Part shown: positions 4,871-8,981 of the stretch, one piece after another
Layout of the letters: each line of letters starts with the position of its first letter
Numbering within the stretch: position 1 is the first letter of the stretch
NCBI RefSeq assembly: GCF_003334815.1
Contig: NZ_QOWO01000015.1
DNA from: Escherichia coli
GTDB lineage: Bacteria > Pseudomonadota > Gammaproteobacteria > Enterobacterales > Enterobacteriaceae
Length of the DNA: 64,000 nucleotides
Reading direction: 5' to 3' (one strand)
The notes under the pieces: generated by a model
The model's input: only the letters and a program-made list of their open reading frames with translations
The model's database searches: none
Told to the model about the DNA's origin: nothing
Translations under genes and position numbers: made by a program

Positions 4871-5362
4871 ATGAACATACTTCTCTCTATTGCAATCACA
4901 ACAGGCATTCTCTCCGGTATCTGGGGATGGGTGGCTGTTTCCCTGGGCTTACTAAGCTGGGCGGGCTTCCTGGGCTGTACGGCCTACTTTGCCTGCCCGC
5001 AAGGTGGGCTGAAAGGGCTGGCGATCTCCGCTGCAACCCTGCTTAGTGGCGTGGTGTGGGCGATGGTCATTATTTACGGTAGTGCACTGGCACCACATCT
5101 GGAAATTCTCGGTTATGTCATAACCGGTATTGTCGCGTTTCTGATGTGTATTCAGGCCAAACAGCTGCTGCTTTCATTTGTTCCGGGGACGTTTATAGGC
5201 GCATGCGCGACGTTTGCCGGGCAGGGTGACTGGAAACTGGTGTTACCTTCGCTGGCGCTTGGGCTGATATTTGGTTACGCAATGAAAAACAGTGGCCTGT
5301 GGCTGGCGGCGCGTAGTGCAAAGACGGCGCACCGTGAGCAGGAAATCAAAAATAAAGCGTGA
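4871..5362 (+). CDS. ycdZ: Inner membrane protein YcdZ (DUF1097), 163 aa
   Basis: ORF 4823-5362; internal ATG at 4871 (MNILLSIAITTG...) gives the 163-aa hydrophobic protein. Confidence 0.8.
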   Translation: MNILLSIAITTGILSGIWGWVAVSLGLLSWAGFLGCTAYFACPQGGLKGLAISAATLLSGVVWAMVIIYGSALAPHLEILGYVITGIVAFLMCIQAKQLLLSFVPGTFIGACATFAGQGDWKLVLPSLALGLIFGYAMKNSGLWLAARSAKTAHREQEIKNKA

Positions 5363-5425
5363 GGGGCACTCACGCTTTCGCTTAAACAGTAAAATGCCGG
5401 ATGATAATTCCGGCTTTTTTATCTG

Positions 5426-6259
5426 TCAGGATTCCGGTGGAACCGACATATGGCGGTATTTCACCAGAATGTCATTCTGCCGTTCTGCTTTATTTTGCAA
5501 ATCCCACAGACCACGGTCGATACCATCATTAATCAGGAAAATGACCCCTGTTTCGATAGCCGACATCAGGCACAGCATAACAGGTTCGTTCGAGGTGTAA
5601 CCCACTTCCCCTTCAAGCAAGCGCTGGTAGTCAATAAAGCGGAAAACCCCGGCCTGAACTTCATAGGAAAGTATCGTCTTACTGGTGTTCACCGAAGAAA
5701 GGATCTCGCCGGTACTCACATTGACGACGCGCAGGTTCACGGCAATCTGATCGAGCTGGTATTGCGTGTCGGCACCGATGCCAAAATATCTTGCCCCAAC
5801 CCCGCCAGATTTGACGTTGCTTTCATAACCGATAATCGAACCTTCAACCATGATATTTGCCGCCGTTAAAGATTGCAGCGGGATTCGGTTATTAATGGCA
5901 ACCGTGCCGTTTTCTTGTGCCGCACGAATAATCTTGCGCTCGTTAAGCAGGTTTTGTAAGCCCTGGCGCTCCAGCGGTATAAACCAGCGAGAATCTTTCA
6001 GTGCCGTGACCAGCATTGCCGTGGCGCTTTGCGGAACAGCAGTGGAGAAGTTACTTGCCGGGTAGGGTTTAAATTGCCCGGTTTCGTCCTGAATGTTGTA
6101 TACCGAAACAAAGATTTTACCCGTCGGCGCTGGCAGATGGGTCAAATCTTTGTAGCTCTGAGCACGAGGCATTAATGTCGGTCTGGCGGCTTCTTTAGGC
6201 GGGGCGGTTAAGCATCCGCTCAGTAACATGACGGCAACCAAAAGAAATAAGCGCTGCAT
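5426..6259 (-). CDS. csgG: Curli secretion channel lipoprotein CsgG, 277 aa
   Basis: Translation MQRLFLLVAVMLLSGC... with lipobox; position in csgDEFG operon. Confidence 0.95.
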   Translation of the reverse strand: MQRLFLLVAVMLLSGCLTAPPKEAARPTLMPRAQSYKDLTHLPAPTGKIFVSVYNIQDETGQFKPYPASNFSTAVPQSATAMLVTALKDSRWFIPLERQGLQNLLNERKIIRAAQENGTVAINNRIPLQSLTAANIMVEGSIIGYESNVKSGGVGARYFGIGADTQYQLDQIAVNLRVVNVSTGEILSSVNTSKTILSYEVQAGVFRFIDYQRLLEGEVGYTSNEPVMLCLMSAIETGVIFLINDGIDRGLWDLQNKAERQNDILVKYRHMSVPPES

Positions 6260-7120: not shown

Positions 7121-7771
<651 letters not shown>

Positions 7772-8525
7772 GATGAAACCCCGCTTTTTTTATTGATCGC
7801 ACACCTGACAGCTGCCTCTAAAATAGAAGCACCAGAAGTACTGACAGATGTTGCACTGCTGTGTGTAGTAATAAATCAGCCCTAAATGGGTAAAATATAA
7901 AACTAATGGATTACATCTGATTTCAATCTAGCCATTACAAATCTTAAATCAAGTGTTAAACATGTAACTAAATGTAACTCGTTATATTAAAATGTTAACT
8001 TTAAGGTTTTATTAAGTTTAGAAATGATAGAAAAGTTGTACATTTGGTTTTTATTGCACAATTTTAAAAAATCATACAAATGGTGATAACTTACTAATAA
8101 TGCATATAAAAAATATTTCGGTGTAGTCCTTTCGTCATGTAAAACGTTCTTGTTTTTTCTCCACACCTCCGTGGACAATTTTTTACTGCAAAAAGACGAG
8201 GTTTGTCACGGCTTGTGCGCAAGACATATCGCAGCAATCAGCGACGGGCAAGAAGAATGACTGTCTGGTGCTTTTTGATAGCGGAAAACGGAGATTTAAA
8301 AGAAAACAAAATATTTTTTTGCGTAGATAACAGCGTATTTACGTGGGTTTTAATACTTTGGTATGAACTAAAAAAGAAAAATACAACGCGCGGGTGAGTT
8401 ATTAAAAATATTTCCGCAGACATACTTTCCATCGTAACGCAGCGTTAACAAAATACAGGTTGCGTTAACAACCAAGTTGAAATGATTTAATTTCTTAAAT
8501 GTACGACCAGGTCCAGGGTGACAAC
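7772..8525. promoter_or_regulatory. Divergent csgD/csgB intergenic control region (long, AT-rich; contains the csgDEFG and csgBAC promoters and the csgD 5' UTR)
   Basis: 754-bp non-coding AT-rich gap between divergent csgD and csgB; known from the literature as a multi-regulator hub. Confidence 0.8.
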
Positions 8526-8981
8526 ATGAAAAACAAATTGTTATTTATGATGTTAACAATACTGGGTGCGCCTGGGATTGCAGCCGCAGCAGGTTATGAT
8601 TTAGCTAATTCAGAATATAACTTCGCGGTAAATGAATTGAGTAAGTCTTCATTTAATCAGGCAGCCATAATTGGTCAAGCTGGGACTAATAATAGTGCTC
8701 AGTTACGGCAGGGAGGCTCAAAACTTTTGGCGGTTGTTGCGCAAGAAGGTAGTAGCAACCGGGCAAAGATTGACCAGACAGGAGATTATAACCTTGCATA
8801 TATTGATCAGGCGGGCAGTGCCAACGATGCCAGTATTTCGCAAGGTGCTTATGGTAATACTGCGATGATTATCCAGAAAGGTTCTGGTAATAAAGCAAAT
8901 ATTACACAGTATGGTACTCAAAAAACGGCAATTGTAGTGCAGAGACAGTCGCAAATGGCTATTCGCGTGACACAACGTTAA
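8526..8981 (+). CDS. csgB: Minor curlin / nucleator CsgB, 151 aa
   Basis: ORF 8499-8981; ATG at 8526 gives MKNKLLFMMLTILGAPGIAAA... with imperfect amyloid repeats. Confidence 0.95.
   Translation: MKNKLLFMMLTILGAPGIAAAAGYDLANSEYNFAVNELSKSSFNQAAIIGQAGTNNSAQLRQGGSKLLAVVAQEGSSNRAKIDQTGDYNLAYIDQAGSANDASISQGAYGNTAMIIQKGSGNKANITQYGTQKTAIVVQRQSQMAIRVTQR

Follow-up and report, generated by a model that had tools for sequence, protein, structure and literature searches.

Positions 7772–8525 of the Escherichia coli DNA analysed here (a stretch of 64,000 nucleotides, in the following referred to as the window) comprise 754 bp of non-coding sequence between csgD (7121–7771, minus strand) and csgB (8526–8981, plus strand), as evident from the list of open reading frames and the sequence itself. 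The csgD coding sequence specifies 216 amino acids and is identical to that of K-12, and csgB specifies 151 amino acids starting with the ATG at 8526. Both assignments agree with the RefSeq annotation of K-12 and of strain 52F4, the intergenic sequence of which is identical to that of the window. As listed, the csgB reading frame extends to an in-frame ATG further upstream (8499), which is left unused by the annotation. In both 52F4 and K-12 MG1655, RefSeq has csgG-F-E-D to one side of the gap and csgB-A-C to the other, with zero features in between.

Extent, composition and occurrence of the csgD–csgB gap

Ranking on the basis of the 52F4 annotation put the gap first in length among the 72 that are annotated across the window. 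Their median is 58.5 bp, and the next in rank are 572 bp (rluC–rne) and 534 bp long. Its GC content amounts to 34.4%, compared to 50.6% for the whole window, which makes it the lowest-GC stretch present. Only 0.7% of 754-bp segments are equally low in GC and 100% of these overlap the csgD–csgB locus, as does each segment at or below 36% GC. An earlier note on this DNA, made from the sequence alone, thus described both the strong AT-richness of the gap and its length, exactly 754 bp and far above typical spacing, correctly. The GC profile inside the gap reaches a minimum of 23% at about 7900–8100 and about 41% in the middle.

The corresponding region of K-12 MG1655 (NC_000913.3, 1103197–1103950) is likewise 754 bp long, is flanked by the same genes, and agrees at 753 of the 754 bases. 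The mapped OmpR, RstA, MlrA and CsgD-box sites are identical; the one differing base is at 8000 (see below). Over the first 25.8 kb only seven substitutions separate the window from MG1655; the differences are located at 1693, 1733, 2416, 4320, 8000, 18868, 24591 and about 25807. K-12 carries C at each of the first five positions, of which four are T and one is A in the window, and a 1-bp indel relative to MG1655 is located in the bssS–dinI gap. When 5,426 complete E. coli genomes were searched, 5,372 contained a match to the gap sequence and 5,330 a full-length one; the median copy number per genome was one and the maximum two. The search left 54 genomes with no match and 42 with partial matches only; 17 records matched at just 80–90% identity, and six matches were on plasmids.

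The csgD promoter

The csgD P1 start site was placed at about 7919/7918 on the minus strand. A start at 7919 reproduces the published offsets of OmpR, MlrA and MqsA, and the mapped 5′ end of the ES056 transcript (see below) lies within 1 nt of it, which provides independent support for this assignment. The –10 hexamer TAGATT (7925–7930, minus strand) ends 6–7 nt upstream of the proposed start and is embedded in a block (7922–7931) that is 98% conserved over 76 sequences. A –35-like hexamer, TTGATT (7947–7952, minus strand), was read from the sequence at a spacing of 16 nt and is part of a conserved block; its assignment is tentative. A consensus sigma-70 scan was discarded as promoter finder, as it misses csgD P1 (8 of 12 positions match) and returned no more sites than shuffled sequence.

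Upstream of the core promoter, the OmpR activating site GTTACATTTAGTTACATGTT (7959–7978, minus strand, centred at –49.5) is an exact motif match and conserved across genera. It encloses an RstA box (7963–7976, minus strand), which matches its motif exactly as well. The MlrA palindrome AAAGTTGTACA-N12-TGCACAATTTT (8032–8065, plus strand, –113 to –146) agrees with the consensus apart from two mismatches, and its half-site at 8032–8042 is conserved at 95% in the 76 sequences. In the same set, the distance between the OmpR and MlrA sites is 69 ± 0.3 bp. The csgD-side module ends with the block AATCATACAA (8070–8079, plus strand, –151 to –160), at least 80% conserved in the 76 sequences. In the mechanism that we propose, the sites for RNA polymerase, OmpR/RstA, IHF/CpxR and MlrA, kept at rigid distances on this promoter DNA of about 160 bp, would together set csgD transcription. 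The published H-NS footprint extends from +28 to –201 relative to the csgD start.

A 19-nt inverted repeat with 74% complementarity connects the spacer of the csgD core promoter (7933–7951) to the putative csgB –10 region (8483–8501). It may reflect chance in AT-rich DNA.

The variant at position 8000

Within 1,861 bp comprising csgD, the gap and csgB, the window differs from K-12 at a single base, T instead of C at 8000 (about –81). Of the strain-specific promoter differences for which the earlier note had suggested an alignment, this base is the only one relative to K-12. It falls into the “mqsRA-like” palindrome at 7997–8008 (plus strand), which reads AACTT TA AGGTT in the window, with one motif mismatch, and AACCT TA AGGTT in K-12. 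MqsA operators are described as AACCT-N2–3-AGGTT with perfect inverted half-sites. This holds for the K-12 palindrome, whereas the T at 8000 breaks one half-site of the window copy. Soo and Wood reported that the palindrome AACCT TA AGGTT at –78 binds the antitoxin MqsA and mediates repression of csgD (PMC4894380). The role of MqsA at csgD is disputed, as deletion or mild overproduction left csgD promoter activity unchanged (PMC6918082); deletion of mqsR likewise left csgBA expression unchanged. Position 8000 is also located inside the published IHF footprint (–37 to –96) and flanked by two CpxR boxes.

The T allele is rare. In a 31-bp context it was found as an exact match in 35 of 5,426 complete E. 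coli genomes, of diverse serotypes, and in a 61-bp context in six, compared to 1,506 genomes with the C allele of K-12 in the same 61-bp context. The palindrome is unconserved even among other Escherichia species, and the alignment column of 8000 is variable across genera. Because of this lack of conservation and the disputed role of MqsA, the variant is probably neutral or of small effect, judging from sequence comparison. Still, the rare T at this promoter position might have a tuning effect on curli expression in the strain that carries it.

The csgB side

A CsgD box, CGGGTGAGTTA (8391–8401, plus strand), precedes csgB. It agrees exactly with CGGGKGAKNKA and is 90% conserved across genera. 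Further csgB-proximal elements are found at 8434–8471 (plus strand), where the imperfect palindrome GTAACGCAGCGTTAAC is accompanied by a second copy of GCGTTAACAA 20 bp downstream; the consensus over this stretch, CGTAACG..GC..TAAC ... GTTAAC, is at least 80% conserved. The alignment suggests a putative csgB –10 hexamer, TTAAAT (8495–8500, plus strand), preceded by a C, which is a feature of many sigma-S promoters. Other genera carry an A/T-rich hexamer ending in T at this position, followed by the conserved sequence TACGACCAGG. A literature search for the csgB transcription start gave no data. The csgB leader and ribosome-binding region AGGTCCAGGGTGACAAC (8509–8525, plus strand) is 92–96% conserved in the 76 sequences. 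Functionally, the CsgD protein, encoded in the opposite operon, would bind the csgB-side box and switch on csgBAC.

The csgD leader RNA

Start-site numbering and the ES056 5′ end define a csgD 5′ leader of about 148 nt between the P1 start and the ATG (7772–7919, minus strand), the fold of which is more stable than that of shuffled sequences (z = –2.2). The Rfam family RF02752, “ES056 sRNA”, matches the first 92 nt of this leader (7827–7918, minus strand) with 119.7 bits at a gathering score of 43 (E = 1.5e-22). The match is full-length and covers model positions 1–92 of 92. ES056 was reported as a 92-nt minus-strand transcript from RNA-seq, with a start site within 1 nt of the csgD start (PMC4676190). 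As it begins at the csgD start, is located on the csgD strand, and covers leader nucleotides 1–92, ES056 is the 5′ part of the csgD leader and not a separate small-RNA gene.

For OmrA and OmrB, the two small RNAs that were paired with the leader and for which the 5′ ends were taken from K-12, RNAduplex predicted a 5′-end pairing site at 7831–7855 (minus strand), i.e. –84 to –60 from the AUG. The energies are –25.9 kcal/mol for OmrA and –30.2 kcal/mol for OmrB, corresponding to z = –4.2 and –6.0 against the shuffled leader. The pairing site falls in the best-conserved block of the leader (7832–7865). The minimum-free-energy fold and RNAalifold agree on a conserved stem-loop at 7801–7851 (minus strand), in which an outer stem surrounds an inner hairpin. 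In the RNAalifold consensus of 20 species, compensatory double changes were identified in 13 of its 23 pairs. Each of the eight pairs of the inner hairpin is backed by five to nine compensatory sequences, and the pairs of the outer stem by none to three. Small RNAs of the OmrA/B type would pair around this stem-loop and thereby block csgD translation.

A small GC-rich hairpin, ACCCAUUUAGGGC (7876–7893, minus strand), is located early in the leader. It seems to be retained with other sequences in other genera, e.g. CCUCC...GGAGG, and RNAalifold made no call on it because the local alignment is poor. Outside the gap, in the ycdZ–csgG interval, STnc400 gave a sub-threshold Rfam match (5353–5428, plus strand, 25.4 bits compared to 80), which is probably due to chance.

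A/T tracts and predicted curvature

The gap contains 26 A/T tracts of at least four bases, and the literature refers to the csgD–csgB region as intrinsically curved. AA/TT dinucleotides show a periodicity peak at 10.6 bp over the whole gap with z = 1.97, a value reached by 4.6% of dinucleotide shuffles, and phasing measures based on A-tract centres gave no significance over the whole gap. Curvature was calculated with a wedge model, using the parameters of Bolshoy et al. 1991. The mean modelled curvature of the gap equals that of composition-matched shuffles. The strongest predicted intrinsic bend is located at 8150–8200, formed by T6, A2T6 and A5 tracts, and peaks at about 8189. With 33.7 degrees it exceeds every other value in the 64-kb window; 2.3% of shuffles attain this level. 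The local AA/TT periodicity at 8150–8200 is pronounced (z = 4.8), but the period is 11.9 bp. The bend at about 8189 is retained in Escherichia and some Citrobacter only and absent in other genera. Conserved curvature of the spacer was considered and rejected, as averaging over the 76 sequences gives a flat profile and the bend at 8189 is lineage-specific. Phased A/T tracts, as proposed for this gap in the earlier note, are thus weakly supported: tracts are plentiful and one local bend is predicted, whereas support for overall phasing is marginal. At best, phasing would be a local, lineage-specific property. The predicted bend coincides with a terminator-like hairpin on the plus strand halfway through the gap (8160–8184), consisting of TCCACACCTCCGTGGA and a subsequent T-run, at which no transcript is known to end.

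Three-part layout across enterobacteria

A scan for CsgD in one genome per species yielded 80 loci, in 75 of which both genes could be placed. The gap measures 742–802 bp in 73 of these 75 species, a range that spans Escherichia, Citrobacter, Salmonella, Enterobacter, Leclercia, Trabulsiella, Phytobacter, Atlantibacter, Franconibacter and Buttiauxella. Shorter gaps were found in two species only, Kosakonia pseudosacchari (589 bp) and K. quasisacchari (586 bp; loci L084 and L085). In both Kosakonia sequences the central spacer is about 128 bp shorter, and some 55 bp are missing from the csgB side.

MAFFT alignment of 76 sequences revealed that the region consists of three parts, i.e. two conserved promoter flanks around an unconserved centre of about 270 bp. 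The csgD side (7772–8081) carries conserved blocks at the ribosome-binding site, the small-RNA target, the –10 hexamer, the OmpR site and the MlrA half-site, and its segment 7932–8081 has a length of 150 ± 0.9 bp. The csgB side (8352–8525) is conserved around the CsgD box and the downstream elements; its length has a standard deviation of 12 bp, above the variation of the centre. The central spacer (8082–8351) is unconserved in sequence between genera, and its length is kept. Its identity to 16 other genera is 0.58–0.69, compared to 0.60–0.62 ± 0.03 for shuffled controls, and its length is 266–281 bp in 74 of the 76 sequences. The same architecture is evident from the agfD–agfB regions of Salmonella and other enterobacteria, which have the divergent layout in common with the window (760 bp in S. 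enterica subsp. diarizonae). They share the –10 hexamer, the OmpR site, the MlrA half-site, the CsgD box, the small-RNA target of the leader and the hairpin. Conversely, they are unalignable to the window over the central 270 bp and over roughly the first 50 nt of the leader, and both the MqsA palindrome and the predicted bend at about 8189 are missing.

Among 11 independent close pairs, the centre accumulated 21 indel events versus 422 substitutions, all indels being 1–2 bp in size. Indel compensation was rejected as an explanation for the constant length, as a spread of about 5 bp is expected if 1-bp indels such as those observed accumulate in a random walk. The remarkable feature is thus the lack of larger deletions and not compensation. 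The interquartile range of the whole gap is 1.3% of its median, compared to 3.8–12% for the csgE–F, F–G, B–A and A–C spacers of the same loci. Helical phase-locking of the csgD –10 hexamer and the CsgD box was rejected as well, since their distance varies between 463 and 477 bp, a range that exceeds a full turn of the helix, and the values do not cluster modulo 10.5. The initial RcdA footprint has been reported at –192 to –308, corresponding to 8111–8227 of the window (PMC3535384); together with the H-NS footprint it lies partly over the centre. We propose that the AT-rich centre evolves freely in sequence while its length is kept; in published footprints it is coated by H-NS and RcdA. It is possible, though less likely than not, that the spacer 8082–8351 is under selection for length and general AT-richness instead of sequence. 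If true, it suggests a set distance between the promoter complexes, or an H-NS/RcdA filament or bridge of given size. A length-conserved, sequence-free centre would then make a simple and testable design rule for the csgD–csgB promoter.

The sole weakly conserved island in the centre, at 8190–8210, has the form AAAA, about 12 nt, and TGTCAC/TGTGAC. Many genera other than Escherichia carry CTTAAGAAA just upstream of it, which E. coli lacks. The island was rejected as a complete CRP site, as conservation covers a half-site only; it is possibly the half-site of a regulator such as CRP.

Nature of the gap

In combination, the length, the flanking genes and the position of the regulatory sites make it virtually certain that 7772–8525 represents the canonical csgDEFG–csgBAC divergent control region of the curli genes in a K-12-like E. 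coli of phylogroup A. The earlier note had assigned the csgD promoter, a long 5′ UTR and the csgB promoter to the gap. The landmarks at published offsets, the 148-nt leader and the near-identity to K-12 agree with this, the csgB –10 hexamer being putative. Its description of the gap as a hub for many transcription factors and small RNAs is consistent with the OmpR, RstA, MlrA and CsgD motifs at published offsets, the predicted OmrA/B complementarity and the literature; in the motif scan that it had suggested, OmpR and CsgD sites were matched exactly and in the expected positions. CsgD is the master switch of curli and cellulose biofilms, and the csgD–csgB region is where this decision is computed. 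Published papers cover the same 754-bp region and its regulators, among which they count OmpR, IHF, CpxR, H-NS, MlrA, RcdA, RcsB and CsgD, as well as its sigma-S dependence; the E. coli region is also characterised by a long csgD leader that Hfq-dependent small RNAs target. The region as found here is accordingly already known, well studied and ordinary, and presents nothing new for a genome scan.

Two other origins of the unusual length were weighed against a control region. The gap could conceal an unannotated gene, either for a small protein or for a small RNA of its own, and indeed six open reading frames of 35–64 amino acids are fully contained in it. Stops or frameshifts interrupt them in closely related Escherichia, with the exception of a short frame at 8368–8475, which overlies conserved DNA sites of the csgB side. 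Wherever the frames seem conserved, the conservation coincides with known DNA sites. Between genera, moreover, the central 270 bp are no closer than the shuffled controls. The terminator-like hairpin with its T-run (8160–8175, plus strand) and the listing of ES056 as “sRNA” at the gap would fit a hidden RNA gene. Against this, ES056 is the 5′ part of the csgD leader, and an Rfam search of the gap matched ES056 as the sole family, even at E ≤ 1. We consider a hidden gene very improbable.

Even less credence is given to the notion that the extra length stems from a mobile-element remnant or a recent foreign AT-rich insertion between two ordinary promoters. The low GC content (34% compared to 51%), the known targeting of the csgD–csgB region by H-NS and the IS3 copy at the start of the window are in line with such an event. 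However, the gap is free of terminal or internal repeats of note, and nearly every genome carries it just once. Furthermore, 73 of the 75 species, ranging from Escherichia to Buttiauxella, have a gap of 742–802 bp at the same position, which identifies it as an ancestral feature of the family instead of a recent insertion.

At the margins of the window, positions 1–77 lie inside the IS3 copy (IS3D in K-12), and collinearity with 52F4 is lost in the first 2 kb and again past about 50.8 kb.
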